Shown: positions 4,458 through 50,909, numbered from the stretch's first letter. The stretch: 64,000 nt of DNA from an uncultured Candidatus Saccharibacteria bacterium (GCA_946222005.1 CAMIHP010000002.1:25322-89321), one strand, 5' to 3'. The notes: a model not told the origin generated them from the sequence alone. Translations and numbers: made by a program.

Positions 4458-4799
4458 GTGGTGGCAGCAAAAGGAACTGAAATGGTGCCGGCTATTTCTC
4501 GTTTTAAAGACTGGCGGAAAAAAAGACGGGAAGAAAAGCGGGAGAAACGGGCAGTCGCCTACAAAGAAGCGAGGAGAACTCTTTATGGTCCAATAGTAGA
4601 CCATGTGTCTTTCGGTCTTCGTGGTGCTCGCCCAGGAACAATGATTAATGTTCCGCTAGTACTCCCTGCTACTCGGACACAAGTAGCCTACGAGGAGAGA
4701 ATGCGCCAACAATTGATGACTCCAGAGGGGCAAAAACAGCACGACGACCTTATTGAATCTCTCACACAGAAAGACGAAGAACGGCGTTCTTGGGAGTAA
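4458..4799 (+). CDS. Hypothetical highly charged (Lys/Arg/Glu-rich) protein.
   Basis: ORF of 113 aa with reduced GC relative to its neighbours. No recognisable motif. Confidence 0.35.
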   Translation: MVAAKGTEMVPAISRFKDWRKKRREEKREKRAVAYKEARRTLYGPIVDHVSFGLRGARPGTMINVPLVLPATRTQVAYEERMRQQLMTPEGQKQHDDLIESLTQKDEERRSWE

Positions 4800-4886
4800 C
4801 AAGACCAAGGTGATAAAGTACTTTAAAGGCATTAAGTAACAAAATTTCTATAACTCTGAATTGCATCACCGTATGGTGATGCATAG

Positions 4887-5459: not shown

Positions 5460-5545
5460 GCATATAGTATATATCAGGCGCTTGATGCTTGCAATGAGAA
5501 TAAAACGATGTAATAGCTAAGAATATAAGAGTAGCTTATCGTGTG

Positions 5546-7219
5546 TTATTTTGTGCCAGCAAGGTAGATTTCTTGCACCTGGGCATCATTCAGCGCGGTG
5601 GTGTGGACAGCCCCAAATTGCATCATACCAGTGAAGAATGTGTTTGTGCTGTTGATCGGTGTGCCATCACCATTACGCCACTCGCTAAAGCGTCCACAGC
5701 CAAACTTCCAGTAGCCACGGAAGTTTTGGGCTTGCGTGACGCTTGGGTCGTGAGCAACCAGTGTGCCATCGGCATAGAGCCGCATGCCTTGTGGTGAGAG
5801 TGAGGCGGCAACGTGGTGCCATTTGCCATCGGCGTAGTTCTTGCCGGCTGGTGAGAAGATTGAGCGCGTGGCATTGGGCCACACCGCAAAGGCAATGCGC
5901 CCTTGCTTGTCGAGAAAGAGGACGCGGTCTAAGCTTGGGTCCGCACCATTGTCTGGTGTACTGGCAAAGCCAGCGATGCGCCCATTATTGAGCCCATATT
6001 GATTGGTATTGAACCAGACAGAGAGGGTAAAAGGGTTGGGGTTGTCGATGAGCGTAGGGTAGGCAAGGCAAGTATCTTTGAAGAGGGTACTGCGCACACG
6101 GTCGCGGCGACAGGCATATGATTGTGAACCATGAGCAGCGGCCGTGCGCGTGAGCCAGGTACCCTTATTGTTATTACCAGATAGGTCGCGCTCGGTAGTG
6201 CCAGTATCGAAGAATGTCATGCCGTAGATGAAGAGCGCCTGCGAGGGGGCAGTGAGCTTGGTGGCATCAGTGCAGTTGTAGAGCACGGCGCGCGCAGTAT
6301 TAGCACTGTTGCGGATCGTACCAGAAAATGCCCCGCTCGTTAGATAAAAGTTATGAAAGATAATGAAGCATATCCCTACCAGTGTAATAATTGCTGCGAC
6401 GATGACAGAAGTTATGGGTAATGGTTGCGGTGAGCTATCGGCTGCGACAGGCCGAGATAGCTGGCGAAGGCCATAGAGCATCAGCCCAAAGGGGATAAGA
6501 CAAATGAGCATAATACACAAGACGACCCACGCTGTGTAATGAATCGTTGGCATGAAAAAATACTGTCCGTGGCTATTTTGCACCGAGACGGTAATGGTAG
6601 CATCTTGGCCGGGGTAGAGCACTGTGCCGACTGCATCGATTGGGAACACTCCGGTATTGACGATGTGCATATTCGCGCCTTCATTGGCTGGCAAGACACT
6701 GAGCACACTAAAGTTGATCCACGGATGAAACCACAGCGACACGGCGCAGAGCACCAGCGTCATGCCAATAATCCGATAATACCAGCGCCACGTTGGGCGA
6801 GCTCGGCGGGTGGCTAGATGGATGATAAGCCAGCCGATCACCACCCATGGCATCATCAGCCATACCCAGCCAAGCCATGGGTTGATGAAAATTGCTTTGC
6901 CGATGACGGCACTGTGCTTGATGGGGAGCGGATCGGCCGCGTGGTTGAGGTCGCCCTTGGTGAGGATACGCTGGTTGGTGATAGACTCAATCCGATGAGT
7001 ATACGTCCGGCCGTGGCGCTGGAAGGTGATGATATCGCCGGGGTGGTAGCTGCTAGCTGGCTGGGCAATGACGAGCGAGCCAACTGGTGCGGCGGTAGCC
7101 ATGCTCGGCGTTGTGACAAAAAAGATACGCATGCCGAGCGCCATCATCACGGCAACGAAGCCTCCAAGACAGAGGCTTAGGATAGTGATGATAATTATTC
7201 GTTGCCGCGGCATGCGCAT
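5546..7219 (-). CDS. SipW-type (archaeal/ER-type) signal peptidase I domain fused to a C-terminal LamG/concanavalin-A-like lectin domain.
   Basis: N-terminal TM followed by 'TTPSMATAAPVGSLVIAQP', 'GDIITF', 'HRI' and 'TKGDLNHAADP', which are the S26 SipW-like Ser/His boxes and the GDN..D motif. Several more TM helices follow. The C-terminal ~200 aa carry LamG-like strands 'TLSVWFNTNQ...GRIAGF...VLFLDKQGRIAFAVW...KWHHVAASLSPQGMRLYADGTLV'. Confidence 0.65.
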   Translation of the reverse strand: MRMPRQRIIIITILSLCLGGFVAVMMALGMRIFFVTTPSMATAAPVGSLVIAQPASSYHPGDIITFQRHGRTYTHRIESITNQRILTKGDLNHAADPLPIKHSAVIGKAIFINPWLGWVWLMMPWVVIGWLIIHLATRRARPTWRWYYRIIGMTLVLCAVSLWFHPWINFSVLSVLPANEGANMHIVNTGVFPIDAVGTVLYPGQDATITVSVQNSHGQYFFMPTIHYTAWVVLCIMLICLIPFGLMLYGLRQLSRPVAADSSPQPLPITSVIVAAIITLVGICFIIFHNFYLTSGAFSGTIRNSANTARAVLYNCTDATKLTAPSQALFIYGMTFFDTGTTERDLSGNNNKGTWLTRTAAAHGSQSYACRRDRVRSTLFKDTCLAYPTLIDNPNPFTLSVWFNTNQYGLNNGRIAGFASTPDNGADPSLDRVLFLDKQGRIAFAVWPNATRSIFSPAGKNYADGKWHHVAASLSPQGMRLYADGTLVAHDPSVTQAQNFRGYWKFGCGRFSEWRNGDGTPINSTNTFFTGMMQFGAVHTTALNDAQVQEIYLAGTK

Positions 7220-31476: not shown

Positions 31477-31857
31477 TTATTTACTGATGTCAATAATCTT
31501 CTTTGACTTTGGAATAATAATCAGCCGTTTGACTCGTTTGATATCATGAAATTCTTTCTTAAGTCGGGCAATATTAACTGCATCGGTTATTTTCGATCGA
31601 CGAAGGTCAAAAATAATGTACTCAGATTGATGAATCGCAACCTTAAATGCGCGTTTGATAGTGTGTGGACTTCGGCCGATTGGACATTTCATCTCCCACC
31701 GCTTGTTGAGCATGATAATGTCTGGTGTATGGACTCCTTTTCGTTGATCGGGTGGAATGATTGTAATATCATAGCCTTGTTGTGTAAGGTAGACAATAGT
31801 TGCATTCTCGTGGTGATGAAGAATAACTCCATTTGTTGTGATAGACCCCTGCCTCAT
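31477..31857 (-). CDS. Hypothetical small protein in an AT-rich islet. Possible PD-(D/E)xK nuclease-fold protein.
   Basis: 126 aa at about 38% GC. The 'TPD...(10 aa)...EMK' spacing resembles a PD-(D/E)xK core. No neighbour of similar composition. Confidence 0.3.
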   Translation of the reverse strand: MRQGSITTNGVILHHHENATIVYLTQQGYDITIIPPDQRKGVHTPDIIMLNKRWEMKCPIGRSPHTIKRAFKVAIHQSEYIIFDLRRSKITDAVNIARLKKEFHDIKRVKRLIIIPKSKKIIDISK

Positions 31858-32012
31858 ACAAAACCATGATAGACTATTATGGTAATAATAGCAAAAATAA
31901 GCTTTTGTGATTCATCATTCAGTTTCATATTCGTGACACCTGTTATCCATTGCACTTACCTCAGAACATGCTACAATGAAAGCATCAACTATAAGCCACA
32001 CAGGGGGAAAAG

Positions 32013-33248
32013 GTGGACGATCCAATTCATATTACATCAGAGATTGGCCGGTTGAAGACAGTGCTCTTGCATCGGCCGGGTGAGGAGCTCGAGCATCTCA
32101 CACCAGAACATTTGCAGCGCCTATTGTTTGACGATATTCCGTATCTCAAGGTTGCGCAGGAGGAGCATGATCGCTTTGCAGAGCTGCTCCGCTCGCGTGG
32201 GGTCGAGGTGTTGTACTTAGATGAACTTGCCGCCGAGGCACTCGCTGACGAAGCAGTGCGGCGGCAATTTGTTGTTGAGATGCTGGTGGCATCGAAGCAA
32301 GACAACCAACGCGCATCGCGGACACTGGCTGAGTATTTGCTGAGCATGGAGCCACGCCAGATGGTGCGCAAGCTGATGGCGGGGGTGCGCAAAGATGAGA
32401 TTAGCCTGCCACCTGAGCAGCAGCAACTCCACACAATGGTGGCGCATGAGCAGTATCCATTCTATCTTGACCCAATGCCGAACCTCTACTTTACGCGCGA
32501 CCCAGCAGCGGCGATTGGCCAAGGTCTGACGATCAACAAGATGCACTGGCCAGCTCGGCGGCGTGAGTCGCTCTTTATGCGCTATATTATCGATTTCCAT
32601 CCGCGCTTTGCTGGCAAGAATGTACCGGTTTGGTATGATCGCAGCCAACCATTCTCGATTGAGGGCGGTGATGAGCTGGTGCTTAATAACCACACGATGG
32701 CCATCGGTATAAGCGAGCGTACCTCACCAGAAGCGATTGAGCTGATGGCGACGAAGCTCTTTGCCGAGTCGAATTTTGACACGGTGATTGCCCTTGAGAT
32801 CCCCAAGAGTCACGCCTTTATGCATCTGGATACCGTCTTTACGATGATTGACCACGACAAATTCACCATCCACCCAGAGATTCGGGGCTTTGAGGGGCGG
32901 ATGAATATCTTCGTCTTGCATAAAGCAGACGGGCAAGCCTACCCAACCATTACCAAAGAACATAATCTTGAGCAGGTGCTCAGCCAAGCCCTTGGCGTGC
33001 CGTCGATTACCTTGATCGAATGCGGTGGCGGTGATGATATCGCTGCAGCACGCGAGCAGTGGAATGACGGTAGTAATACCTTGGCGATTGCTCCTGGGGT
33101 GGTGGTCACCTACGACCGCAACTACGTTACCAACCAAAAACTGCGTGAGGCAGGTGTCGAAGTGCTGGAGATTACCGGCTCAGAGCTTGGCCGGGGCCGT
33201 GGCGGGCCACGCTGCATGAGTATGCCATTAATACGAGAGGATGTGTAA
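32013..33248 (+). CDS. arcA: Arginine deiminase.
   Basis: 411 aa. N-terminal '[22 protein letters not shown]'. C-terminal catalytic Cys 'GGPRCMSMP'. Confidence 0.9.
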
Positions 33249-34244
33249 ATGAACCTACCAACCAATCTAAAAAACCGCTCATTCCTAGCCCTCAAGGACT
33301 TTTCATCAGAGGAAATCCGGCAGATGCTCGATGTGGCACACGAGCTTAAGAAGCTTAAGCGCGAGGGCGTGCCGCACCGCTTACACGAGGGTAAGCAAGT
33401 CGCCCTCTTGTTTGAGAAGAATTCCACCCGTACACGCTGCGCCTTTACGGTAGCGGCCAATGACCTTGGCGTTGCGCCGGAGTTTCTCGGCAAGGATGAT
33501 ATCCAGCTCGGCAAAAAGGAGTCGGTTGAGGATACCGCGAAGGTGCTGGGCCGGATGTTTGATGGGATTGAGTTCCGCGGCTTTAAGCACTCGACGGTGG
33601 AAGACTTGGCCAAGCACGCTGGCGTACCAGTGTGGAATGGTTTGACCGATCAGTTCCACCCGACGCAGATTCTGGCCGACTTCATGACGCTCGAGGAGCA
33701 CATTGGGCCGCTGGCTGGCACGAAGCTGGTCTTTGTCGGTGATGGGCGCAACAATATGGCGAACAGCTTGATGATTGGCTCGGCCAAGATGGGCGTTGAT
33801 TTCCGTATCTTAGCGCCAGCTGAGCTGCACCCGAGCAGTGAGCTGGTTGATCTCGCTCGGGCGATTGCCGCCGAGACCGGCGCGCAGATTACCGTGACGG
33901 ATGATCGCGCCACGGCTCTCGAGGGAGCAGACGCGATCTACACCGACGTATGGGTGTCGATGGGTGAGGAGGCACAGTTCGCTGAGCGGATTGCCTTGCT
34001 TAAGCCATACCAAGTGAATCGTGCCATGCTCGATGAAACGCACAATCCACACGTTAAGTTCTTGCACTGCTTGCCAGCCTTCCACGATCTCAACACCGAG
34101 ACGGGGCTGAAGATCTACCAAGACTACGGCCTTGAGAGCATGGAAGTGACAGACGAGGTGTTCCGGAGTGAGCACAGTGTGGTCTTCGACGAAGCGGAGA
34201 ACCGCATGCACACGATCAAGGCAGTGATGGCACTGACGTTATAA
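33249..34244 (+). CDS. arcB: Ornithine carbamoyltransferase (catabolic).
   Basis: 'STRTRCAF' carbamoyl-phosphate-binding motif, 'HCLPA' motif, 331 aa. Starts 1 nt after the arcA stop. Confidence 0.9.
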
Positions 34245-34274
34245 CAAGTAACTGAGGCATAGGGGGCCTCACGT

Positions 34275-35750
34275 ATGACAACACAACAAACACAACAAGA
34301 GAGCAAGCTGGGGTGGCGATCACTCACCGGACTTGTTATCGGCAGTATGATTGGGGCTGGTATCTTCAATCTTGTCCGTAATACCGCAGAATCGGCTGGA
34401 CCACTGGCAACCATCATTGCCTGGCTCGTCACTGGGGTGGGGATGGTCTTCCTTGTCCTGAGTTTTCGCAACCTTGCCGAGAAGCGCCCCGACCTTGACG
34501 CTGGTATCTATAGCTATGCCGAGGCAGGGTTTGGCAAATATGTCGGGTTCAACTCGGCCTGGGGGTACTGGATCTCGGCCTGGATTGGCAACATTGCCTA
34601 TGCGGTAACGGCCTTTTCGGCGCTTGGCTATTTCTTCCCGCAGCTGTTTGCTGACGGCCAAAACTGGGCCTCGGTGATTGGTATGTCTATCCTGCTATGG
34701 GGCGTGCATTGCCTAATTCTCCGTGGTGTGCGCACGGCGAGTGTAGTGAACTTGCTCATCACGATTGCCAAGATTGTTCCGCTGATTATCTTCCTTGTGG
34801 CAATTATTGCCGCCTTTAAGCTCGATATCTTCTCGAAGGACCTCTGGGGCCTGGCTGGGAGTAATCTGAGCCTTGACGTTGTTCTGCGGCAGATCAAGGA
34901 TATGATGATCGTCACTGTCTGGGTGTTCATTGGCATCGAGGGTGCGGTGGTTTTTTCTGGTCGAGCCAAACAGCGCAGCGATGTCGTTAAGGCGACCTTC
35001 ATTGGCTTTGCTGCCGTGCTTGCGCTCTATGTCTTGATGACCGTCCTCGCCTTTGGTGTGGCAACGCAGCCGGAGCTGGCTGGCCTCAAAGACCCAGCGA
35101 TGGCACTCTTGCTTGAGAAGGTGGTTGGGCCGTGGGGTGCCTGGCTAGTCAATATCGGCTTGATCATTGCGGTGCTTGGTGGCTGGCTAGCCTGGACGAT
35201 GTTTGCAGCTGAGCTGCCCTACCAAGCGGCAAAGGTTGGCACTTTTCCGACGTTTTTTGCCAAAGAGAACAAGGTTGGCGTGCCAAAGAACTCACTGCTG
35301 GTGACCAACGCTTTGGTGCAGTTCTTTATCCTGACGATACCGCTGACGAGTGGCTCGGTGTATAACATTGGTATTGCGATTGCAACATCGGCAATTCTCG
35401 TACCTTATGCCTTGACGGCCTTCTACCAGCTGAAGCACTCGACTCTCGAGAAGCCAGAGACAAAGGGCCGGGCAGCCAATATCTTGATTGGTGTGATGGC
35501 TAGTGTGTATAGTGTCTGGCTGGTCTATGCCGCAGGCGTAGAGAACTTACTGGTGACGGTGTTCTTATATGTGCCGGGCATTGTGGTCTATGGCCTCATG
35601 CGCAAGCAGCAAGGCAAGAAGCCATTTACAGCGCTTGAGTGGCTGCTCGTTGTGGCACTGCTGGTGGCGCTGGCCTATGCGCTATTCCAGCTGCTGACTG
35701 GCGGGCTGGATAAGACACTTGGCATTACGATGCCGAAGCTGTTTAACTAA
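34275..35750 (+). CDS. arcD: Arginine/ornithine antiporter (APC superfamily).
   Basis: 491 aa with about 12-13 TM helices. 'GSMIGAGIFNL' APC signature. Lies within the arc operon. Confidence 0.8.
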   Translation: MTTQQTQQESKLGWRSLTGLVIGSMIGAGIFNLVRNTAESAGPLATIIAWLVTGVGMVFLVLSFRNLAEKRPDLDAGIYSYAEAGFGKYVGFNSAWGYWISAWIGNIAYAVTAFSALGYFFPQLFADGQNWASVIGMSILLWGVHCLILRGVRTASVVNLLITIAKIVPLIIFLVAIIAAFKLDIFSKDLWGLAGSNLSLDVVLRQIKDMMIVTVWVFIGIEGAVVFSGRAKQRSDVVKATFIGFAAVLALYVLMTVLAFGVATQPELAGLKDPAMALLLEKVVGPWGAWLVNIGLIIAVLGGWLAWTMFAAELPYQAAKVGTFPTFFAKENKVGVPKNSLLVTNALVQFFILTIPLTSGSVYNIGIAIATSAILVPYALTAFYQLKHSTLEKPETKGRAANILIGVMASVYSVWLVYAAGVENLLVTVFLYVPGIVVYGLMRKQQGKKPFTALEWLLVVALLVALAYALFQLLTGGLDKTLGITMPKLFN

Positions 35751-35813
35751 CGAGTAATCATGCGGTGTGCCGAGAAAGGTGCACCGCATTACATAAGAGA
35801 AAGGAGTGTGATG

Positions 35814-36584
35814 TTTCGCTACGCGATTACCCGTCGGCCAAGCCGTAGCTTGATCAACGGTATTAGCCAGACGCCGGAGAAGGGCAAGCCAGACTATGAG
35901 CGGGCAATGCAGCAGTACGATCAGTACGTTGCGCTGCTCCGCCAGTGCGGCCTTGAAGTGACGGTCTTGGAGCCCAATGAGGAGTATCCGGATAGCGTCT
36001 TCATTGAGGATAATGCTCTGTGTACGCCGCATGGGGTGGCGATTTTGTCGCGGCCTGGGGCAGCAAGCCGGCGCGGCGAGGCGAGCTTGCCCGATTTGCG
36101 CCAGGCACTCAGCCAGCATTATGATATTATCGAGCAGGTCGAAGCACCCGGCACCGTCGACCCCGGTGATATTATGATGGTGGGCGAGCACTACTACATT
36201 GGCCTGAGCCACCGCACCAACCAAGCGGCGGCCGAGCAGATTACTGCTATCCTTGAGCGCTACGGCATGACGGCCGAGACGGTTGAGGTGACAGGGGTTC
36301 TGCACCTGAAGGATGATGTGGTCTACTTAGATAACAACAACCTGATCGTTGCCAAGGCCTATGAGCACCACCCAGCTTTTGCAGCATTTAACAAGCTGGT
36401 GGTGGATGACGATGAGTACTATGCGGTGAATAGCTTGTGGATTAATGGCACGGTGATCGTGCCGCAGGGCTTTCCCAAGATTGAGCAGCAGATCCGCGAC
36501 TGTGGCTACCACGTAGAACTAATCGATACCAGTGAATTTGAAAAGATAACCGGCAGTTTGACCTGCATGTCGTTGAGGTTTTAA
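35814..36584 (+). CDS. DDAH/amidinotransferase-superfamily enzyme (dimethylarginine dimethylaminohydrolase-like).
   Basis: Roughly 256 aa. C-terminal catalytic Cys 'GSLTCMSLRF'. N-terminal 'FRYAITRRPSRSLINGIS' is typical of the DDAH fold. RBS 'AAAGGAG' upstream. Confidence 0.65.
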   Translation, partial: FRYAITRRPSRSLINGISQTPEKGKPDYERAMQQYDQYVALLRQCGLEVTVLEPNEEYPDSVFIEDNALCTPHGVAILSRPGAASRRGEASLPDLRQALSQHYDIIEQVEAPGTVDPGDIMMVGEHYYIGLSHRTNQAAAEQITAILERYGMTAETVEVTGVLHLKDDVVYLDNNNLIVAKAYEHHPAFAAFNKLVVDDDEYYAVNSLWINGTVIVPQGFPKIEQQIRDCGYHVELIDTSEFEKITGSLTCMSLRF

Positions 36585-36585
36585 G

Positions 36586-37527
36586 ATGAGTACAATTGTG
36601 ATTGCATTGGGTGGTAACGCCCTCCAAAGACAAGGTGAAGCAAGTGCGGCTGCCCAGCAGCGAGTGGCGAGTGAAACGGCGGCTCAGCTAGTGCCGCTGA
36701 TTGCAGCTGGGCATCGGCTGGTGATCGTCCACGGCAATGGGCCGCAGGTGGGGAACATCGTGCTCCATGAGGAGGCGATTAACACTCCTGAGGTGCCAAC
36801 GATGCCGCTTGATACGTGCGGGGCGATGAGCCAGGGGGAGATTGGCTACTGGCTGCAGCAGGCGCTGACGAATGAGTTTGCCCGCCATGGTATGCCAAAC
36901 CATGCCGTGACGATGGTGACGCAGACGGTGGTGGATGCGAATGACCCAGCGTTTGCAAATCCTACCAAGCCAATCGGGGTCTTTTATGCCTCCGAGGCTG
37001 AGGCACAGCAGTCGGCAGCAGGGCGTGATTTCGTCTTCAAAGAAGATGCGGGGCGAGGCTGGCGCCGCGTTGTGCCATCGCCACGGCCGCAGCGCGTGGT
37101 AGAAGAAGGTGCGGTGCGTGCCCTGCTTGATACCGGCTTAACAGTGGTGACGGCTGGCGGAGGCGGTATTCCGGTGGTTGAGAATGAAGCGCAGGGTATG
37201 GCTGGGGTCGAGGCGGTGATTGATAAGGACTTTACCGCTGCGGTGGTGGCTGATGCGATTGATGCCGAAGCCTTGGTGATCCTCACGGCCGTCGATAACG
37301 CGATGGTCGACTATGGTACGCCGCAGGCCCGTGCGATTAGTCAGACGACCAGCCAGGAGATGCAGGCTTATGCCGAGCAGGGGCAGTTTGCGTCCGGTAG
37401 TATGCTACCGAAGGTGCAGGCTGCGCTTAATTTCGTGGAAAAGCCTGGTCGGCGCGCCATCATTGCTAACCTAGAGCATGCCGCTGCCGCTGTGGCAGGC
37501 GAGCAAGGGACGATTATTGTGTCGTAG
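36586..37527 (+). CDS. arcC: Carbamate kinase.
   Basis: 'IVIALGGNAL', 'VIVHGNGPQVG', 313 aa. Starts 2 nt after the upstream stop. Confidence 0.9.
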   Translation: MSTIVIALGGNALQRQGEASAAAQQRVASETAAQLVPLIAAGHRLVIVHGNGPQVGNIVLHEEAINTPEVPTMPLDTCGAMSQGEIGYWLQQALTNEFARHGMPNHAVTMVTQTVVDANDPAFANPTKPIGVFYASEAEAQQSAAGRDFVFKEDAGRGWRRVVPSPRPQRVVEEGAVRALLDTGLTVVTAGGGGIPVVENEAQGMAGVEAVIDKDFTAAVVADAIDAEALVILTAVDNAMVDYGTPQARAISQTTSQEMQAYAEQGQFASGSMLPKVQAALNFVEKPGRRAIIANLEHAAAAVAGEQGTIIVS

Positions 37528-37711
37528 GATATTCGCGAAGAGAGAAGTAGATAGACACTGGTGCAAAGGGCGCTGGTGTCTATTTTTGATGGCATTGTTC
37601 TGTGGTGAGTGTGATGTAACCAGTACTTTATTTCTCAAACTACTTGACATTTCAATATACCTTGTATAGCATAGTACCAGGCAATAACAATAATATAGTA
37701 AGGAGTATCGA

Positions 37712-44638: not shown

Positions 44639-44848
44639 CATGAATACATACGAGTCTGGGACAATAAACCAGGTATTGAAAAAAGCAAACTGATGATTGA
44701 GGTGATTGATAAGGAATGAGGAGTAGGACGGAGACTGTTTATCGATATGGTATCTAGACAGATATAACTCATAAAAGGGAAAATCAGAAGTTCTATATTC
44801 GTGCTAGAATAGTCAGAGAGTAGGAAGTAGGGGGTGAGGGTAGAAAAT

Positions 44849-45610
44849 ATGCCCAAGAAGAAACTAAATAATAATACCAAACTAAGCTTCCGTACCATTC
44901 TTCTCCGTAGTATTCTCTATGTAATTGGTGTACCAACAGTCATCATGCTTCTCCTTGTTGGCGGATTCTATCTCAAATTATGTGCTGAAGCTAGCCAAGC
45001 TCAAGCAGCAATGAAAACATATCTACATAGTAAATATGGTGAAGAATTTATCGTCGAACGACCAGAAAAGAATGGAAGCGGGCTCGGTGTAGAAGGGTGG
45101 TTTGAAGCAACAGCCTACCCGAAGAATCACACAGACATCCGCTTCATTGTTATGCTGTCATCCTCAGGGAAGCATGATGGCTATGCTGGTGCTGTATGGT
45201 CAAAAGAAGAGACTGATCGACTCAAACCTATTATTCAGCGTATCTTTAGTAAAGATGTAGTGTATAGTGTAACCATCCAATCGTCTATGACGCTACAAAC
45301 GAAAGATATACAAGTTGACGGTGTAATACCACGTTTTACACAAGCGGCGGCACAATATAAGCAGCAAATTCCATATAATATCACTATTCAAAAAACACAC
45401 CAAACACGAGAATATCAGGAAAAAATGCGCATCGTCGATAATCTTAAAGAGCTTGCAAAGGATCTGCCAGATACCGTTGACACTACTATTCGCTACCAAG
45501 CACAAACATCTGGAGGTAAGAAGTTTGATTTAGATATAACAATCATGGCATTAAAATCCACACCACAAGAAACATTAGTCACAATGTTTCAAGAAAAGGA
45601 GAGTCTATAA
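44849..45610 (+). CDS. Paralog 1 of a four-member family of type-II membrane-anchored proteins (conserved N-terminal TM anchor, divergent extracytoplasmic C-domain). Candidate immunity or variable surface protein.
   Basis: 'MPKKKLNNNTKLSFRTILLRSILYVIGVPTVIMLLLVGGFYLK' is shared almost identically with paralog 3, and clearly with paralogs 2 and 4. ATG preceded by a G-rich RBS. Confidence 0.6.
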   Translation: MPKKKLNNNTKLSFRTILLRSILYVIGVPTVIMLLLVGGFYLKLCAEASQAQAAMKTYLHSKYGEEFIVERPEKNGSGLGVEGWFEATAYPKNHTDIRFIVMLSSSGKHDGYAGAVWSKEETDRLKPIIQRIFSKDVVYSVTIQSSMTLQTKDIQVDGVIPRFTQAAAQYKQQIPYNITIQKTHQTREYQEKMRIVDNLKELAKDLPDTVDTTIRYQAQTSGGKKFDLDITIMALKSTPQETLVTMFQEKESL

Positions 45611-45612
45611 AT

Positions 45613-45684
45613 ATGAGCATAACAATAGAGCAATATCTTGCACTAAGTGCACTTGCCTATAAAATACAACCTTTAAAAGAATAA
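45613..45684 (+). pseudogene. Degenerate 5' fragment of the lipase/RTX gene (24 codons) trailing paralog 1.
   Basis: Translation 'MSITIEQYLALSALAYKIQPLKE*' against the lipase N-terminus 'MVKDEQFLTLSSLAYEPFSD'. The core 'EQYLALSALAY' matches 'EQFLTLSSLAY'. Confidence 0.55.
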
Positions 45685-45710
45685 CTAGAAAGTTCCATAA
45701 TTACACTACT

Positions 45711-45734
45711 AATAGTCGCGTAGCTAAAATAGGG
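45711..45734 (+). promoter_or_regulatory. Conserved upstream element of the paralog array (copy before paralog 2), containing a -10-like TAAAAT.
   Basis: 'aatagtcgcgtagctaaaataggg' here matches 'acaatagtcgcgtagccaaaaaatagggg' at 46751-46779, with a weaker 'agaatagtc' at about 44807. Confidence 0.4.
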
Positions 45735-45752
45735 ATCTTGAGAGCAGAAAAT

Positions 45753-46505
45753 ATGTCCAATAAAAAACCAAACGATAACAGCAAACTAAGCTTCCGCACC
45801 ATCCTCTTCCGTAGTATTCTCTACGTGATTATCATTCCGACAGTTATCATGTTGGTAATATTTGGTATATTCTACACAAAATCTACTATTGATGATCATA
45901 TTGCTCAATCACATATGCGGTCATACCTCAAACGTAAGTATGGCCAAGAATTTATAGTAGAGAATTATCGAATCGAGGGGGCTGGCCTTGGAGTAGATGG
46001 TGTTGCCAAGGCTGAGGCGTATGCTAAAAGTGACCACACGATTCGATTTATGGTGAAGGGGTTTCCGGGGGACAGTCCATACAGTAATAACTATTGGGAT
46101 GGATACCCCGATATGACATGGGCAAAACACCTCAAAAAGGATATTGATCCTATGATAAAAAACGTATTTGGTGCCGACACATCGCTCGCATCAATAGAAG
46201 TTTACAGTATACCTGCAGTGAACCAAAGGATAGGAAAAGAAATACCATTGTATCGTGATGCCTTCCAGCGATTTGGTAAAGATATACATGTCGCTGTACG
46301 TATAAAGAGTAGGGTTGTCCATAATGATGTAGCCGCACAGATATACCAGATAATCGTCAAGCTGCGAGAGTTCGGTGTGTCGCTATCTATTAATTATGAG
46401 AACCCCATGGTATATGTTGCATTAGTCGAAGAAACAAGTATACGCGGTATACATTCACCACAGGATGTAAGGAAATATATAGAAATGAAGGGGGAAAAGC
46501 TATGA
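45753..46505 (+). CDS. Paralog 2 of the membrane-anchored family.
   Basis: 'MSNKKPNDNSKLSFRTILFRSILYVIIIPTVIMLVIFGIFYTK'. The C-domain is divergent but alignable in patches with the other three paralogs. Confidence 0.6.
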   Translation: MSNKKPNDNSKLSFRTILFRSILYVIIIPTVIMLVIFGIFYTKSTIDDHIAQSHMRSYLKRKYGQEFIVENYRIEGAGLGVDGVAKAEAYAKSDHTIRFMVKGFPGDSPYSNNYWDGYPDMTWAKHLKKDIDPMIKNVFGADTSLASIEVYSIPAVNQRIGKEIPLYRDAFQRFGKDIHVAVRIKSRVVHNDVAAQIYQIIVKLREFGVSLSINYENPMVYVALVEETSIRGIHSPQDVRKYIEMKGEKL

Positions 46506-46543
46506 AAATAGAACAATGCTTGGTGTTAAGCTCATTATCTTAA
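46502..46543 (+). pseudogene. Second degenerate 5' fragment of the lipase gene (14 codons) trailing paralog 2.
   Basis: 'MKIEQCLVLSSLS*' against the lipase 'MVKDEQFLTLSSLAY'. Confidence 0.5.
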
Positions 46544-46750
46544 TAGTACATCCCTAAGTAGTTTTGCCTCTAGCAGCGAGAAGCCACCATTGAGGCGCTC
46601 ATAAAACAGGGAAAAATTGACAATTATCGCCATAGCGATGGATCTATTTCTCTCGAATGCAAACCCCTCTCCTCTCTCATATCTTGACACCTCATCAACG
46701 CTACGACTTTCAGAGTAAGAAGAATAACTCAATAGTTCTGCATTTGTGCT

Positions 46751-46779
46751 ACAATAGTCGCGTAGCCAAAAAATAGGGG
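46751..46779 (+). promoter_or_regulatory. Conserved upstream element of the paralog array (copy before paralog 3).
   Basis: A duplicate of the 45711-45734 element, including the TAGCCAAAAAAT -10-like box. Confidence 0.4.
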
Positions 46780-46797
46780 TTGTTGGGAGAAGAGAAT

Positions 46798-47538
46798 ATG
46801 TCCAAGAAGGAACTAAATAATAACACCAAACTAAGCTTCCGTACCATTCTTCTCCGTGGTATTCTCTATGTCATCATTATTCCAACGGCTGTTATGATTC
46901 TCCTTATTGGTGGATTCTATCTCAAGGCCGATATTGAGGCGAATCAAGCTCAAGCAACAATGAAAACTTATTTACAAAACAAATATAATGAGGAATTCAT
47001 CGTTGAGAAACCAGAGCGGAAGAGCAGTGGCCTCGGCGTAGAGGGAGTACTAGCTGCCAATGCTTACCCTATACGGGATCCTCATATACGATTTTCTGTA
47101 AACACCTCATCGAATGGCAATCAAGATAACTATCCAGGTGTAATATGGTCCCGCTCTCAGAATGATAAGTTAATAAAGGATCATATCATAAATAACTCAT
47201 GGGCGCAGACCGACATCACTGTCAGTCTTGCAGACAATACAGCACAGTCGCTGAGCGGTACACCTAAAACATACGAAGAAGCGATAGCGTCTTATGGAAA
47301 AGATATTCACTACATAATAAGTGTTAATCGTAATACAAATCAATTGGCTGTCGATAACCGGGATCGGTACTATCTCATAAGCCTTATTAGATATATCAAT
47401 CAGCAAAAAGTTGGCTACCGTATTATACATTACAGCATACATGATACGAAGATGGACGCAGACATAGTGTGCAATATACAGGTAGAAGGTACGCGTCTAT
47501 TAGATGAAAAACAAGCCAATGAATGCTTTAGAAAATAA
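46798..47538 (+). CDS. Paralog 3 of the membrane-anchored family.
   Basis: The first roughly 130 nt are near-identical to paralog 1 at the DNA level. The C-terminal domain is divergent. Confidence 0.6.
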   Translation: MSKKELNNNTKLSFRTILLRGILYVIIIPTAVMILLIGGFYLKADIEANQAQATMKTYLQNKYNEEFIVEKPERKSSGLGVEGVLAANAYPIRDPHIRFSVNTSSNGNQDNYPGVIWSRSQNDKLIKDHIINNSWAQTDITVSLADNTAQSLSGTPKTYEEAIASYGKDIHYIISVNRNTNQLAVDNRDRYYLISLIRYINQQKVGYRIIHYSIHDTKMDADIVCNIQVEGTRLLDEKQANECFRK

Positions 47539-47556
47539 GGGGTGGGGACAGAAAAC

Positions 47557-48318
47557 ATGCACGAGAAAGAACCAGACGAGAATAATAGGCTAAGCTTTCG
47601 CACCATCCTCTTTCGTGGTATCCTCCGCGTTATCATTATTCCGACATGCGTCATACTTCTATTAACTGGTGCATTAATCGGTATATTTCATATTAAGTAT
47701 CTTATAGAGGCTCATCAAGCTCAGGCTGAAATGCGCGCCTACCTAGAGAAAAAATATCACCAGCACTTCATTATCAAGAACTATCGAATTGAAGGAGGAG
47801 GATTCGCAAGAAGAGGCGGCAAAGTTGCAGATGCACATAGAGAGGGTAGTTCTTATACCTTTCGTGTTTTAGAGAAAGATCACCGGCTCTATCGTGATAA
47901 CTACCTCTCAGCACTTTACAATGAGCAGGAAGAAAAAGATCTTACCAAGATGGTTAAAAAATTGTCTATACCTGCAGTAAAATATATGCCAGATATTACA
48001 ATTGCTCCTGATGTAGCTGATGGGATACAGGGTACGCCAGCTTTTGCTGAGATGTTGCAAAAGTATGGAGACCATATTATATATGAAGTATCTATTGTTG
48101 TAGTAGGGGATCAGGTAAAAGAAGAAGATGTCCAAAACGTAAGAAAACTTATGGAGTATGCCCAATCAAAAAACCCGAGAAGTTATGCTGTGAGATATGT
48201 TGTAAATAGCAGAACTGAAGATGCACGATATATTTGTCAGGAGTATGGAGGTATAAGCGAGAAAACGGCGCAAGAAACTTCTAAGGATTGCTTTAAAAAG
48301 AGTAAGGGAAGGATATAG
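47557..48318 (+). CDS. Paralog 4 of the membrane-anchored family. Directly followed by the lipase/RTX gene.
   Basis: 'MHEKEPDENNRLSFRTILFRGILRVIIIPTCVILLLTG'. Stop at 48318 and the lipase ATG at 48321. Confidence 0.6.
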   Translation: MHEKEPDENNRLSFRTILFRGILRVIIIPTCVILLLTGALIGIFHIKYLIEAHQAQAEMRAYLEKKYHQHFIIKNYRIEGGGFARRGGKVADAHREGSSYTFRVLEKDHRLYRDNYLSALYNEQEEKDLTKMVKKLSIPAVKYMPDITIAPDVADGIQGTPAFAEMLQKYGDHIIYEVSIVVVGDQVKEEDVQNVRKLMEYAQSKNPRSYAVRYVVNSRTEDARYICQEYGGISEKTAQETSKDCFKKSKGRI

Positions 48319-48320
48319 TA

Positions 48321-50909
48321 ATGGTAAAAGACGAACAGTTTTTAACTTTGAGCTCATTGGCATATGAGCCGTTTTCTGATAATGATATCAACAAATCTTT
48401 AAAAGAAATTATTAAGAAAGTACCTAGAAACAACCGTCTTGAACTTAAACCTCTCTCCTCCCTCGCATCCTGGCACCTCATTAACGCCACAACCACTTCA
48501 TCTGGTATGTCGGCTATTGCTGTGCAAGATCCAGCCACCAAGGACATTGTCTTTGCCTATCGCGGAACGGATATTGATAAGAATATCTGGGAGGCGATGA
48601 AAGATATTGAGTCGGATATTGCGATTGCATCGAGTGGAAATGTTTTTGTGCAGGATGGGCTGAACCAATTCCACGATGCTTACACCTTCTATACCGAGAC
48701 GATCAAGAAAGTTGGTGGCGGTGCTCATGTAGGCACCAAGAGCTTCACTGGCCATTCACTCGGTGGTGGACTAGCGCAGTATATGGCGTATAAAACTGGT
48801 GGTGCATATAAGACGGTCACCTTCGACGCGGTAGGGATTGGCCAAGTGCTGAAGAATGTCAACCCGCGGGACTATGATACCTCAGTAACGGACTACACCA
48901 ATGAGCACGATATCATTGGTATGTATGGTGTGCAGCTGGGCCGCACAGTGTACATTAAGGATATGAACAGTGATGAGCTGCGTAAGAAGGACCGTGACTA
49001 TGTGACAATACTGCAGTATGCGCAGGGTGCCATTGCTGTGGCGGCACGCAATGGCGAGCATGCCTCAGCAATGGGGTGGATGGCAGCTGCAAGCATAGCA
49101 TCGCTCGGGTATGCAGTGAATCGCACTAGCCAAGAGCTAGCTTTCGATGCACATCGTCCAAGTAGTTTATTAACTGATGATGGTACGCTAGCAGCCACTG
49201 TACCGCAGGGAGACTCCATCACGAATACATTGGCTGGCGCACTTCGTACAACACTGGAAGTATATACCGGTATTGCCAATGGTGTTCATTTCATCGTTGT
49301 TGAGATTCCAAGTGCTACAGCTGAAGAGCTTGTGCGAATAACGCTCTCTGTCGCTGAAAGTGGTAAGAAGATCATAGTCGATGTAGCACAGGTGATTCGC
49401 GATCAGGTGAATATCCTTACCTCTAGTGTATATGAAACAAGCCGGATTATGGGTGAGCAAGCCGATGCCTTTGCTCGTGTGCTGATGACACAACTTGCTG
49501 GGGCTACGCAATGGACAACTTCGCTCCGCCTCGACATTGCCGTGCTGAGTGCACTGAGTGGTGCGGCCAGAATAACGCGCGATACACTTGCTGCTATAGT
49601 AGAGACACCTGATGCGATGACACGTTGGCTGCAGATGGTCTTTGGTGCAAGTGCACATGTCGTTGGTACAGCAGCAGACGATTCTATTGATGGTTATGAT
49701 CATATCCCAGACTATGGCGTGACGAAGCGTGCGGTCTATGTAGAGGGCCGAGAAGGGAATGATTACGTAACAGGAACGAATTCTGATGATACATTGATGG
49801 GTGATGCAGGGAATGACACTATCATGGGCAAAGGTGGTAATGATATGATTTTTGGCGGTGATGGTGACGATTCTCTATATGGTGATGGTGGTAGTGATAC
49901 AATTTTTGGCGGTGCTGGCGATGACAACCTTAATGGTTCAGAAGGTGATTCTAATAAGCTCTATGGTGGCGCAGGTGATGATGGAATAAATGGTTCCGGG
50001 TTGATTGTTGGCGGCGCAGGTGATGACCGGATCGACTCTCAATTTGGGAACGATACATATATCTATAACCGCGGTGATGGTAATGACACGATTAGCGACT
50101 TTGGCGGCATTGACACTGTACGGTTTGGTGCGGGTATCGTGCCAAGCGGTGTAACGGCACGCTATGAGAGCCGCCCGTATGGCGCGCCAGGCAATGATTA
50201 TGATCTTGTCTTAGATATAAAAGGCTCTGGTAGTATTCGCATCAAAGACTATTATGGTTCGAGTGACTGGGCAGGACGGAACCGTCCCGTACCGGGTCAT
50301 CGTGTCGAGCGCTTTGTTTTTGCAGATGGCACCGTGTGGGATGAGCAGGCAATCCGCACCATGACGCATAACTTACAAGGAACAGCTGACGATGATTCTA
50401 TTGACGCCTTTGATGATGATGGTATCACGGTACATAGTGGAGCTGGTAACGACACGGTGCGTGGCGCGAGGCAAGACGCAAATGTGCTCTATGGGGACGA
50501 CGGTGATGACAGCCTCATTGGTGGTGAGAAAAATGATATGCTGACTGGTGGGCAGGGTAATGATGTGTTGTATGGTGCAGGTGGCAACGATATCTATACC
50601 TTCAAGCGAGGGGATGGTGTTGACACGATAAGTGATGATGACGGCGTTGACACACTGCAGTTTGGCGAAGGCATTAATCCGCGTGATGTGACTGTTCGAC
50701 GTATCCATCTTTCATCATATGAAAGTCTCGAGCTTGCTATCACGGGTACAGGTGATAAAATCATTATCCAAGGATATTTTGGCTCGTACTCATACGACGG
50801 GCTGCATGAGAGCACAAGCCAGCAGATCGAAAAAGTGGTTTTTGCTGATGGTACGGTATGGACACCGGAGATAATCGCGCAAATGCTTGTAGAGCACACG
50901 AGTGAATAG
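48321..50909 (+). CDS. Large secreted-effector-like protein. N-terminal lipase class 3 / Mbeg1-like alpha/beta-hydrolase domain, then RTX nonapeptide Ca2+-binding repeats and two haemolysin-type Ca-binding-related (HCBP_related-like) domains.
   Basis: 'VFAYRGTDIDKNIWEAMKDI' and the nucleophile elbow 'FTGHSLGGGLAQYMA'. Repeated 'GNDTIMGKGGNDMIFGGDGDDSLYGDGGSDTIFGGAGDDNLNG' repeats. Two copies of '...RGDG(N/V)DTISD..G(I/V)DT(V/L)(R/Q)FG.GI.P..VT.R.......VFADGTVW'. No N-terminal signal peptide. Confidence 0.8.
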   Translation: MVKDEQFLTLSSLAYEPFSDNDINKSLKEIIKKVPRNNRLELKPLSSLASWHLINATTTSSGMSAIAVQDPATKDIVFAYRGTDIDKNIWEAMKDIESDIAIASSGNVFVQDGLNQFHDAYTFYTETIKKVGGGAHVGTKSFTGHSLGGGLAQYMAYKTGGAYKTVTFDAVGIGQVLKNVNPRDYDTSVTDYTNEHDIIGMYGVQLGRTVYIKDMNSDELRKKDRDYVTILQYAQGAIAVAARNGEHASAMGWMAAASIASLGYAVNRTSQELAFDAHRPSSLLTDDGTLAATVPQGDSITNTLAGALRTTLEVYTGIANGVHFIVVEIPSATAEELVRITLSVAESGKKIIVDVAQVIRDQVNILTSSVYETSRIMGEQADAFARVLMTQLAGATQWTTSLRLDIAVLSALSGAARITRDTLAAIVETPDAMTRWLQMVFGASAHVVGTAADDSIDGYDHIPDYGVTKRAVYVEGREGNDYVTGTNSDDTLMGDAGNDTIMGKGGNDMIFGGDGDDSLYGDGGSDTIFGGAGDDNLNGSEGDSNKLYGGAGDDGINGSGLIVGGAGDDRIDSQFGNDTYIYNRGDGNDTISDFGGIDTVRFGAGIVPSGVTARYESRPYGAPGNDYDLVLDIKGSGSIRIKDYYGSSDWAGRNRPVPGHRVERFVFADGTVWDEQAIRTMTHNLQGTADDDSIDAFDDDGITVHSGAGNDTVRGARQDANVLYGDDGDDSLIGGEKNDMLTGGQGNDVLYGAGGNDIYTFKRGDGVDTISDDDGVDTLQFGEGINPRDVTVRRIHLSSYESLELAITGTGDKIIIQGYFGSYSYDGLHESTSQQIEKVVFADGTVWTPEIIAQMLVEHTSE

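Follow-up and report, generated by a model that had tools for sequence, protein, structure and literature searches.

Five open reading frames (ORFs) lie on one strand at positions 32013-37527 of the window, a 64-kb stretch of DNA from an oral Candidatus Saccharibacteria, and they were annotated as arcA, arcB, arcD, ddah and arcC. The order arcA-arcB-arcD-[DDAH-like]-arcC given in the original prediction was borne out, with all five ORFs co-directional. The genes and the signals found around them are the following:

31950..31976, + strand: possible sigma-70-like promoter (TTGCAC, 16-nt spacer, TACAAT), read by eye and tentative
32003-32007, + strand: Shine-Dalgarno sequence of arcA (GGGGG)
32013..33248, + strand: arcA, arginine deiminase (ADI), 411 aa, GTG start; PF02274 E = 1e-144, TIGR01078 556 bits (cutoff 489)
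33249..34244, + strand: arcB, catabolic ornithine carbamoyltransferase (OTC), 331 aa; TIGR00658 422 bits (cutoff 281)
34275..35750, + strand: arcD, APC/APA-family arginine/ornithine exchanger, 491 aa; TIGR00905 548 bits (cutoff 409)
35760..35789, + strand: GC-rich RNA hairpin between arcD and ddah, with a stem of 12 bp and the loop GAGAAA; -23.1 kcal/mol, z = -5.1
35802-35806, + strand: Shine-Dalgarno sequence of ddah (AGGAG), 4 nt ahead of the ATG
35811..36584, + strand: ddah, b-type DDAH-family hydrolase, 257 aa; profile and structure-sequence matches
36586..37527, + strand: arcC, carbamate kinase (CK), 313 aa; TIGR00746 403 bits (cutoff 358)
37552..37587, + strand: intrinsic terminator at the operon end, 13-bp stem TAGACACTGGTGC/GCGCTGGTGTCTA and then TTTTT; -19.3 kcal/mol, z = -3.95

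The ADI-pathway set is complete, with ADI, OTC and CK all above their equivalog cutoffs and an exchanger present. The latter scored 586.4 bits against TIGR03810, just below the cutoff of 591, and was named ArcD following the usage for APA/APC-type exchangers (PMC5300872). The stop codon of arcA is directly abutted by the ATG of arcB, while the ATG of arcC lies 1 nt past the ddah stop, which makes translational coupling of these two genes likely. The intergenic gaps are 0 (arcA-arcB), 30 (arcB-arcD), 60 (arcD-ddah) and 1 nt (ddah-arcC), and the range of 1-30 bp proposed previously must be corrected in this sense.

Regulatory elements and the start of ddah

The TACAAT hexamer at the 5' end of the operon was the sole -10-like one in the 155-nt region upstream of arcA, and the site at 31950..31976 was absent from the output of a consensus promoter scan. 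Only one canonical terminator with a full T-run was found, downstream of arcC. Past it, at 37644-37672, the gene that follows has a promoter-like site.

The hairpin between arcD and ddah was present in all 38 distinct arcD-ddah spacers (70 loci), with a median z of -6.7, and it is built from at least four unrelated stem sequences with compensatory changes; runs of A and T flank it in the lineages L034 and L063. It is probably an intra-operon attenuator or an mRNA-stability element and, given its conservation at this place, ddah-arcC may be expressed to some extent independently of arcABD.

The longest ORF of ddah comprises 274 aa and begins at an upstream ATG at 35760. The true start is likely the ATG at 35811, since AGGAG lies four bases upstream of it, the ATG at 35760 falls within the conserved hairpin stem, and homologues begin with MF(K/R)Y. 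The protein then has 257 aa, so that the short length originally predicted was right and the exact figure (256 aa) was not. That this ORF did not arise by chance is indicated by the 2544 homologues of its product at E <= 1e-3, by a dN/dS of 0.058 inside the clade, which denotes strong purifying selection, and by its conserved synteny. In addition, between clades ddah had the lowest non-synonymous divergence (pN = 0.10) among the five genes of the operon.

Family membership and active site of the DDAH-like protein

The protein matched Pseudomonas aeruginosa DDAH (3RHY_A) end to end, with residues 1-257 on 1-254 (E = 8.1e-76), and also bovine and human DDAH-1 (E about 1e-25). It obtained 47 bits with PF19420 (gathering score 23), and its top NCBIfam model was NF045658 'dimethylargininase', at full length (315.6 bits). 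The equivalog cutoff of this model (450) was not reached, although it is a strict one, under which the canonical DDAH of Vagococcus (421.7 bits) and the Saccharibacteria a-type (338.4 bits) also fall. Databases already label the gene as DDAH, and the full-length homology together with the conserved catalytic residues upholds its initial assignment to the DDAH/ADI superfamily.

A second ADI, which the original prediction had discounted on account of length, was rejected: the protein has 257 aa instead of about 410, it scored 21.2 bits with NF002381 (cutoff 414) as against the 315.6 bits of the DDAH model, and it lacks the ADI helical domain, an insert of roughly 85 residues that is missing from DDAH (PMC3474736). 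Arginine dihydrolase (ArgZ; NF052232, only 36.7 bits, cutoff 450) and citrulline hydrolase (CtlX; NF046062, only 24.7 bits, cutoff 334) were also rejected, and no amidinotransferase model appeared among the NCBIfam matches at E <= 1e-3.

Alignment with the P. aeruginosa (Pa) and human enzymes located the following codons:

36159..36161, + strand: Asp117, the triad acid (Pa Glu114, human Asp127)
36303..36305, + strand: His165, catalytic (Pa His162, human H173)
36312..36317, + strand: Asp168-Asp169, a clade-specific pair in place of Thr165-Gly166 of canonical DDAH
36549..36557, + strand: Thr247-Gly248-Ser249, with Thr for Pa D244 and Ser for Pa Gly246
36564..36566, + strand: Cys252, catalytic (Pa Cys249, human C274), in ...SLTCMSLRF

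The C-terminal Cys of ...GSLTCMSLRF, which had been proposed as catalytic, therefore aligns with Cys249 of P. aeruginosa DDAH; it must be noted that 1H70 is the C249S mutant and hence carries Ser in this column. Asp61, Glu66, Asp67, Arg87 and Arg135 align with Pa D60, E65, D66, R85 and R132. Thus, the alpha-carboxylate-binding Arg87 and Arg135 and the alpha-amino-binding Asp61 are kept, their human equivalents (R98, R145 and D73) being responsible for binding the backbone carboxylate and amino groups (PMC10958460), and the first guanidine clamp, Asp67 (Pa D66, human D79), is invariant in all sequences compared. Given the conservation of catalytic and backbone-binding residues, the substrate is expected to carry a guanidino or amidino head on an L-amino acid whose alpha-amino and alpha-carboxylate groups are both free.

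The second guanidine clamp (Pa D244, human D269), which in the human enzyme holds the substituted distal nitrogen (PMC10958460), is lost in the window protein, where it is Thr247, and Ser249 stands in place of Pa Gly246, at the position where Leu271 of the human enzyme lines the alkyl pocket. Among 132 diverse family representatives, Pa position 244 is Asp in 111, Glu in 9 and Thr in none, and Asp is never found at position 165. Seven positions specific to the b-type clade were found in the alignment. Four of these (Pa 165, 166, 244 and 246) are changed in the b-type, and none of the 106 canonical sequences compared varies there, the invariance of 165 and 244 being part of the definition of that set. 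The b-type sequences form a single clade (94/100), which is not sister to the Saccharibacteria a-type (24/100). Asp at both 165 and 244 occurs in two sequences and in the Ignavigranum paralogue. With the second clamp lost in this divergent subclade, specificity for ADMA/L-NMMA is not assured and, as the pocket for the N-omega-substituent is remodelled, the b-type may prefer a different substrate than canonical DDAH does. No characterised member of the b-type clade was found in the literature searched.

P. aeruginosa DDAH (PA1195; PDB 1H70, 3BPB, 3RHY; EC 3.5.3.18) has the same length and fold as the window protein, but the identity is only 47%. Its triad acid is Glu, whereas that of the window protein is Asp, as in mammalian DDAH-1, and the replacements from the former to the latter comprise D244 to Thr, T165-G166 to Asp-Asp, G246 to Ser and, in the lid loop, A21 to Thr. 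Unlike that of the window, the P. aeruginosa gene has not been reported within an arc operon. The Pseudomonas DDAH gene is reportedly regulated by DdaR for methylarginine metabolism.

Gene context in other genomes

The order arcA-arcB-arcD-ddah-arcC was found in all Saccharibacteria loci of sufficient length to hold it, which represents about 70 species-level genomes from three sublineages, of which two differ in their flanking genes. Other, distant Saccharibacteria present the order arcA-arcB-arcE-ddah(a)-arcC-ddah(b), and one or two DDAH genes are located within the ArcE-type arc clusters of L076, L082 and L081. The a- and b-type paralogues are consequently found together in single operons in some lineages, while only the b-type exists in the lineage of the window. 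Paralogues sharing one operon probably differ in substrate and, for this reason, the b-type may not be the ADMA enzyme. The DDAH gene may also have moved from Saccharibacteria into the actinobacterium Pseudoclavibacter alba.

Nanosynbacter lyticus TM7x and Saccharibacteria HMT-350 belong to the same phylum and have the same pathway, as a four-gene arginine deiminase system that is experimentally active in TM7x, yielding ATP and ammonia and benefiting both epibiont and host (PMC8764695). The order is arcA-arcB-exchanger-arcC; in TM7x the exchanger is ArcE (IT superfamily) and consecutive locus tags leave nothing between exchanger and arcC, whereas in the window ArcD (APC) is followed by ddah. 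The description of ddah as inserted therefore holds in a relative sense: the gene is present in addition to those of the published arcA-arcB-arcE-arcC operon, but the exchanger type differs too. DDAH is not mentioned in the TM7x paper of Tian et al. 2022 (PMC8764695).

Outside this phylum, the locus of Vagococcus sp. BWB3-3 (L086) consists of a divergent GntR regulator and the cluster DDAH-ArcD-OTC-CK, with no ADI gene in its 10.8 kb. As in the window, DDAH and an ArcD-type exchanger stand beside a catabolic OTC and a carbamate kinase, but this DDAH is canonical (421.7 bits; E114/T165/D244) and occupies the usual position of ADI. No description of this cluster was found in the searchable literature. 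Bacillus massiliigorillae has the arrangement DDAH-permease-OTC, and in Ignavigranum and L084 the DDAH gene adjoins an ArcD-like permease (45% identical to the window ArcD), without OTC or CK. The linkage of DDAH to OTC and CK in independent contexts supports the model proposed originally, in which citrulline from DDAH feeds OTC and carbamate kinase.

It must be considered that the idea of DDAH as an energy-related source of citrulline is not new, since Pereyre et al. suggested in 2009 that the DDAH of Mycoplasma hominis (MHO_2540) provides the arginine dihydrolase pathway with citrulline by a second route (PMC2751442). The hypothesis is the same (citrulline from DDAH, then ATP through OTC and CK), and this is also a genome-reduced, host-associated and arginine-dependent organism, but its DDAH is unlinked to arcABC (MHO_0630-0690), whereas that of the window lies inside the operon, as it does in about 70 species. 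No growth of M. hominis was detected with 0.5 mM ADMA (PMC2751442), and in its proteomes DDAH falls together with ArcA (PMC8895549). No description of the in-operon arrangement of ddah or of the remodelled active site was found in the searchable literature.

In the short ADI pathway, external citrulline is imported by ArcE and gives one ATP via ArcB and ArcC (Noens and Lolkema, 2017, PMC5300872). The route proposed here would likewise enter at citrulline, which in the short pathway is imported ready-made. ArcD moves citrulline poorly (PMC5300872), so a lineage bearing ArcD may instead make it inside the cell, via ADI and possibly DDAH.

Proposed function and alternative explanations

We lean towards the interpretation, based on sequence comparisons, that ddah encodes a cytoplasmic Cys-His-Asp hydrolase of the DDAH family which would convert N-omega-substituted L-arginine to citrulline and thereby fuel ArcB and ArcC, with one ATP from each molecule. 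The gene would be co-transcribed with arcA, arcB, arcD and arcC, and ArcD would bring the substrate in, exchanging it for the ornithine made. This substrate is most likely an N-omega-substituted L-arginine, the leading candidates being methylarginines such as L-NMMA or ADMA, which proteolysis of host proteins would set free. The active-site Cys would attack the guanidino carbon, with methylamine or dimethylamine leaving, and hydrolysis of the thiouronium intermediate would give L-citrulline, from which ArcB would produce ornithine and carbamoyl phosphate by phosphorolysis. ArcC would then convert carbamoyl phosphate and ADP to ATP, CO2 and NH3. Given the ArcD exchange and the ArcB and ArcC steps, the yield would be one ATP per molecule, the same as for arginine. 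Free methylarginines in body fluids are scarce relative to arginine, and the energetic gain could thus be small.

It is possible, although rather unlikely, that the reaction and its connection with OTC and CK are those indicated and that the b-type has been neofunctionalised to a substrate other than ADMA/L-NMMA. This could be one whose N-omega substituent is smaller or more polar, monomethylarginine only, N-omega-hydroxyarginine, homoarginine, a canavanine-like compound or even arginine and, where both paralogues are present, the b-type would complement the canonical a-type. The seven clade-specific positions, four of them replacing canonical invariants, agree with such a change, as do the absence of D165 and of T244 from the 132 representatives, the correspondence of 244 and 246 to the human Asp269 clamp and Leu271 alkyl pocket, the monophyly of a b-type that is not sister to the a-type, and the co-occurrence of both in single operons; the Gly-to-Ser and Gly-to-Asp changes would in addition shrink or polarise the substituent pocket. 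In this regard, the reservation 'or another guanidino compound' in the original prediction was apt. However, none of the backbone-binding or catalytic residues is altered, nor is the first clamp, the only DDAH in the lineage of the window is the b-type, which must handle methylarginines if these matter there, and the sequences with Asp at both 165 and 244 are compatible with Asp168 taking the clamp role without any change of substrate. Arginine, for its part, would duplicate the function of the intact ArcA of the same operon. A broader proposal, which we consider doubtful, is that DDAH-ArcD/E-OTC-CK clusters mark a general and hitherto undescribed way for host-associated bacteria to gain ATP, a 'methylarginine (substituted-arginine) dihydrolase' route, and that the b-type (T247, D168-D169, S249) is a member of it neofunctionalised to a non-ADMA substrate. 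If true, ultrasmall epibionts would gain a second fermentable fuel from proteins of the host or the basibiont.

A housekeeping or protective role, in which the enzyme clears methylarginines unavoidably imported by ArcD and ATP is incidental, appears improbable. These compounds might act as inhibitors of ADI, of arginyl-tRNA charging or of the exchanger, and the position of ddah directly downstream of the exchanger gene, the scarcity of free methylarginines and the presence of DDAH by ArcD-like permeases without OTC or CK in Ignavigranum and L084 are in line with this role. Nevertheless, the 1-nt gap between ddah and arcC and the ADI-less cluster of Vagococcus point to productive catabolism, and some genome-reduced Saccharibacteria keep two in-operon copies of DDAH. 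We give very little credit to activities that do not form citrulline for the pathway (amidinotransferase, ArgZ-like dihydrolase or CtlX-like ureidase) or to a host-modulating role, in which lowering of ADMA raises NO synthesis. The former belong to the same guanidino-modifying superfamily, with a common Cys/His/acid triad, but the matches to arginine dihydrolase and CtlX are weak and far under their cutoffs, compared with the full-length match to DDAH, and with a citrullinase or dihydrolase in the operon the carbamoyl phosphate step would be skipped and its ATP lost. Effects on host NO were suggested for the DDAH of P. aeruginosa and M. hominis (PMC2751442). The N-terminus of the window protein (MFRYAITRRP), however, is not signal peptide-like and aligns to residue 1 of the cytoplasmic P. 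aeruginosa enzyme, so that any effect on host ADMA would be only a by-product of uptake.

The arginine deiminase operon and its DDAH gene

Five open reading frames (ORFs) running in the same direction were identified by family models as an arginine deiminase operon, in which a gene of the dimethylargininase (DDAH) family, hereafter ddah, is located between arcD and arcC. The original prediction had described this five-gene arrangement, which was confirmed with small corrections. The features are as follows:

32013-37527, + strand: five ORFs, arcA-arcB-arcD-ddah-arcC
First ORF: arcA, arginine deiminase (ADI); TIGR01078, 556 bits (cutoff 489)
Second ORF: arcB, ornithine carbamoyltransferase (OTC); TIGR00658, 422 bits (cutoff 281)
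34275-35750, + strand: arcD, APC/APA-family basic amino acid exchanger; TIGR00905, 548 bits (cutoff 409)
35760-35789: GC-rich hairpin in the arcD-ddah spacer; -23.1 kcal/mol, z = -5.1
35811-36584, + strand: ddah, DDAH-family protein
Fifth ORF: arcC, carbamate kinase (CK); TIGR00746, 403 bits (cutoff 358)
37552-37587: intrinsic terminator at the operon end after arcC, a 13-bp stem followed by TTTTT, read and folded from the sequence

The intergenic gaps were 0, 30, 60, and 1 nt in order from arcA to arcC, and we infer that the five genes are co-transcribed. The start codon of ddah is most likely the ATG at 35811, which has an AGGAG sequence 4 bases before it and gives a product of 257 aa ending in GSLTCMSLRF, in agreement with the C-terminus SLTCMSLRF read originally. 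A longer ORF, from an in-frame upstream ATG at 35760 overlapped by the spacer hairpin, opens within the conserved stem, and the homologues begin with MF(K/R)Y. Since the ddah stop codon and the arcC ATG are only 1 nt apart, translational coupling of both genes is suggested.

A hairpin was present at this position in each of the 38 distinct spacer sequences of the 70 loci L001-L070 (median z, -6.7). The stems have no fewer than four unrelated sequences, with compensatory changes (e.g., ATGCGG/CCGCAT vs. ATGTGG/CCACAT). In the lineages of loci L034 and L063 the hairpin is placed between A and T runs, resembling an intrinsic terminator, and in the lineage of the window it has no T-run. This hairpin probably attenuates or stabilises transcripts, which would fix the arcABD to ddah-arcC ratio. 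It must be noted that a consensus promoter and terminator scan missed the clear terminator at 37552-37587 and that the internal terminators it proposed were weak matches in coding regions; therefore, negatives from that scan are unreliable. Scanning the whole window for tRNAs and Rfam families gave no matches, so that the operon is under no known riboswitch or leader.

The ddah protein aligned end to end with the Pseudomonas aeruginosa DDAH (PaDDAH; 3RHY, 3BPB, and 1H70) with an E value of 8e-76 and 47% identity; its alignments with the DDAH-1 of cattle and humans were weaker. Given this identity to solved structures, the fold of the product is already established. The best NCBIfam model was NF045658, the Pseudomonas-type dimethylargininase, with 315.6 bits over the complete profile (1-254/254), below its strict cutoff of 450. 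The Streptomyces- and Mycobacterium-type DDAH models gave 177 and 58 bits, respectively, and those of arginine dihydrolase, CtlX, and ADI only 21-37 bits. On these scores, the identities of arginine dihydrolase (ArgZ) and CtlX were rejected. A second ADI was discarded as well, given the low model score and a length of 257 aa without the helical domain of approximately 85 residues carried by ADIs (PMC3474736); the protein had been judged too short for this function from the start. The catalytic machinery is intact, according to residue roles taken from a structural review of DDAH-1 (PMC10958460).

Functional residues of the ddah product (Pa, P. aeruginosa DDAH numbering)
Cys252 (Pa C249): catalytic, conserved
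His165 (Pa H162): catalytic, conserved
Asp117 (Pa E114): triad acid, Asp in mammals
Asp61 (Pa D60): amino-binding, conserved
Glu66-Asp67 (Pa E65-D66): first guanidine clamp, conserved
Arg87 and Arg135 (Pa R85 and R132): carboxylate-binding, conserved

Conservation and gene contexts of ddah

A scan using one genome per GTDB species yielded 72 loci, 71 of them from Candidatus Saccharibacteria metagenome-assembled genomes, mostly of oral origin (Candidatus Nanosynbacter sp. is the name on two records, and L071 and L072 are fragments of approximately 1.4 kb). The remaining locus belongs to [Zimmermannella] alba, now Pseudoclavibacter alba. The order arcA-arcB-arcD-ddah-arcC was present in all Saccharibacteria loci long enough to show it, including a clade with different flanking genes and a DDAH 82-85% identical, as well as locus L040, despite an ArcC only 60% identical. 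Within the clade of the window, the dN/dS of ddah was 0.058 vs. 0.016-0.038 for the arc genes. Between clades, where saturation of synonymous sites (pS 0.73-0.90) made dN/dS not computable and pN was used instead, ddah had the lowest value of the five genes (0.10). Given the conserved order, the low dN/dS and the lowest between-clade pN, ddah is a functional and constrained member of the operon.

When gene contexts were compared, two types of DDAH paralogues emerged, a canonical one (a-type) and that of the clade of the window's protein, with an altered active site (b-type). The b-type homologues examined were in arc clusters, with the sole exception of that of P. alba, which stands alone without arc neighbours. 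The exchangers in these clusters are named ArcD when they belong to the APC/APA family and ArcE when they belong to the IT superfamily (PMC5300872).

DDAH gene clusters in other genomes (DDAHa and DDAHb, a- and b-type)
L076-L078 (L076 span 1-6774): ADI-OTC-ArcE(DcuC Pfam)-DDAHa-CK-DDAHb
L082, 2-6397: [ADI]-OTC-ArcE-DDAHa-CK-DDAHb
L081, 252-2840: DDAHa-DDAHb-CK
L086, 4216-9264, Vagococcus sp. BWB3-3: GntR, then DDAH-ArcD-OTC-CK (canonical DDAH)
L087, 4193-8417, Bacillus massiliigorillae: GntR, then DDAH-permease-OTC (canonical DDAH)

Loci L076, L082, and L081, with both types in one cluster, are from distant Saccharibacteria. The genome of L076 is a Saccharibacterium, as all named matches to its AspRS were Saccharibacteria or Saccharimonadales, and its ArcA, ArcB, and ArcC shared only 54-66% identity with those of the window. 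In view of these identities and of the ArcE-type clusters, DDAH genes occupy arc operons of deeply separated Saccharibacteria lineages in two exchanger backgrounds.

The contexts of canonical DDAHs in Firmicutes were similar. Neither the 10.8-kb Vagococcus locus nor the B. massiliigorillae locus contained an ADI gene, and both clusters look like an arc operon with DDAH substituting for ADI. In addition, Ignavigranum and L084 have a GntR-DDAH-permease arrangement whose permease is 45% identical to the ArcD of the window. That DDAH is repeatedly found beside OTC, CK, and an exchanger of the arginine/ornithine type provides, within this analysis, the best evidence that its citrulline is destined for the ATP-yielding steps. 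Among these contexts, the most telling is that with DDAH in the position of ADI, and the Vagococcus and Bacillus clusters hint at a route wider than one phylum.

With respect to the exchangers, the ArcD of the window scored 586.4 bits with TIGR03810 (arginine-ornithine antiporter), just below the cutoff of 591. That of Vagococcus (L086, 5856-7262) scored 580 and, like the former, passed the broader APA subfamily model. These near-misses may indicate that both DDAH-adjacent exchangers accept a somewhat different or wider set of substrates.

The P. alba protein (L068, 6001-6771; also L073-L075) was 75% identical and the only b-type DDAH outside Saccharibacteria. It was placed in the tree inside the Saccharibacteria b-type clade, and its gene has a G+C content of 58.5% vs. 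64-65% in its flanks, which suggests horizontal transfer from Saccharibacteria to an actinobacterium. Known hosts of Saccharibacteria come from the phylum of this actinobacterium. Ignavigranum ruoffiae (L080) carries two DDAH paralogues separated by a GntR gene, and in one paralogue both 165 and 244 are Asp.

The b-type active site and its candidate substrates

The a-type proteins showed 55-56% identity to PaDDAH and retained E114, T165, and D244, while the b-type ones, including that of the window, showed 44-49% identity and carried D114, D165, and T244. When 48 b-type sequences were compared with 106 canonical ones, seven b-type-specific positions emerged, in Pa numbering (A21T, T165D, G166D, A203V, D244T, G246S, and S248T). 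All of them except 203 are in active-site elements, namely the lid loop, the two residues past the catalytic His motif, and the catalytic-Cys loop. An exhaustive search of 50%-identity representatives, which was used solely as a varied background for residue frequencies, provided 132 diverse family representatives, with none close to the b-type clade (best match, 50% identity). Asp165 and Thr244 were absent from all 132, in which position 244 was mainly Asp (111) or Glu (9).

The human equivalent of D244, Asp269, is one of the "two clamps securing the guanidine group" and touches the substituted distal nitrogen, and that of G246, Leu271, lines the pocket of the alkyl substituent (PMC10958460); human residues were mapped to Pa numbering through the bovine DDAH alignment. 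A literature search on the role of human Ser176 (bovine Ser175, Pa Thr165) gave nothing relevant. Given the replacement of the clamp (244) and alkyl-pocket (246) residues, the part of the b-type site predicted to read the N-omega substituent is remodelled, and those holding the backbone and performing catalysis are unchanged.

In neighbour-joining analysis, b-type monophyly was recovered in 94 of 100 bootstraps and its clade with P0018 (E, G, and T at the three positions 114, 165, and 244) in 99. The Saccharibacteria a-type was monophyletic in 100 of 100 and grouped with Firmicutes DDAHs. Both types formed one clade in only 24 of 100; this value and the Firmicutes grouping led us to reject the idea that the paralogues arose by recent duplication within the operon.

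By homology, the methylarginines L-NMMA and ADMA are the leading candidate substrates. Considering the remodelled clamp and pocket, together with the fact that both types can be present in one operon, the b-type might favour another substituted arginine, which we regard as rather unlikely, though a serious contender. With methylarginines as the preferred candidates, ArcD would bring in the N-omega-substituted L-arginine in exchange for ornithine. Cys252 of the ddah product would then attack the guanidino carbon with departure of the substituted amine, and hydrolysis would release citrulline, from which ArcB and ArcC would give ornithine, CO2, NH3, and one ATP. Citrulline formation for OTC and CK was the interpretation initially advanced, and it is supported as far as sequence and gene context reach. 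The remodelled site also represents a natural experiment on the recognition of N-omega substituents by DDAH and bears on the design of DDAH inhibitors.

Relation to known systems and other features of the window

Saccharibacteria and other CPR bacteria have a minimal metabolism, and the source of their ATP is an active question. Methylated arginines are endogenous inhibitors of the host nitric-oxide synthase, so that the host could experience side effects where they are consumed in plaque or at sites of inflammation. DdaR is reportedly linked to methylarginine metabolism in work by Lundgren from 2017. The conserved fifth gene of the operon suggests that, in many oral lineages, the same ATP-yielding steps can also be supplied with substrates of a second class, which would be of physiological benefit. 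The arginine deiminase system is the one pathway with an experimentally demonstrated benefit for Saccharibacteria and their hosts in the mouth (PMC8764695). That of TM7x consists of four genes with consecutive locus tags, arcA-arcB-arcE-arcC, and the same paper does not mention DDAH (PMC8764695). Genetic tools have been reported as well (PMC10633639).

The idea that DDAH gives the arginine dihydrolase pathway a second supply of citrulline has already been published for Mycoplasma hominis, in which ddah is unlinked to arcABC and 0.5 mM ADMA gave no growth (PMC2751442). DDAH and ArcA decrease together in micro-colony proteomes of this species (PMC8895549). Moreover, NCBI annotates the Saccharibacteria homologues PID33548.1 and PID32710.1 as N(G),N(G)-dimethylarginine dimethylaminohydrolase. 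Our finding is thus not categorically new: it involves a known enzyme family and a known pathway, the hypothesis had been published before, and automatic annotation already recognises the gene. Open-access papers and bioRxiv, a scope in which absence is not proof, yielded no description of the b-type signature or of a DDAH gene located within an arc operon. What appears to be new is the conserved in-operon ddah, with two architectures, in many Saccharibacteria, the Firmicutes DDAH-ArcD-OTC-CK clusters that lack ADI, and the b-type active-site variant without the canonical second clamp.

Immediately upstream of arcA and divergent from it, a 126-aa ORF (31477-31857, - strand) contains a CdiA C-terminal toxin domain (PF18451, E = 7e-10) in surroundings of lower G+C content (49%). 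Finally, four tandem paralogous ORFs of 252-258 aa (44834-50909) share 31-50% mutual identity; they have no Pfam match, and each contains a hydrophobic segment close to its N-terminus. Their G+C content is 39-40% vs. a window mean of 52.6%, and directly downstream of them is an 862-aa protein bearing calcium-binding repeats of the RTX/haemolysin type. These ORFs and the RTX protein may represent a toxin accompanied by an array of immunity-like genes, or else an island acquired by horizontal transfer.
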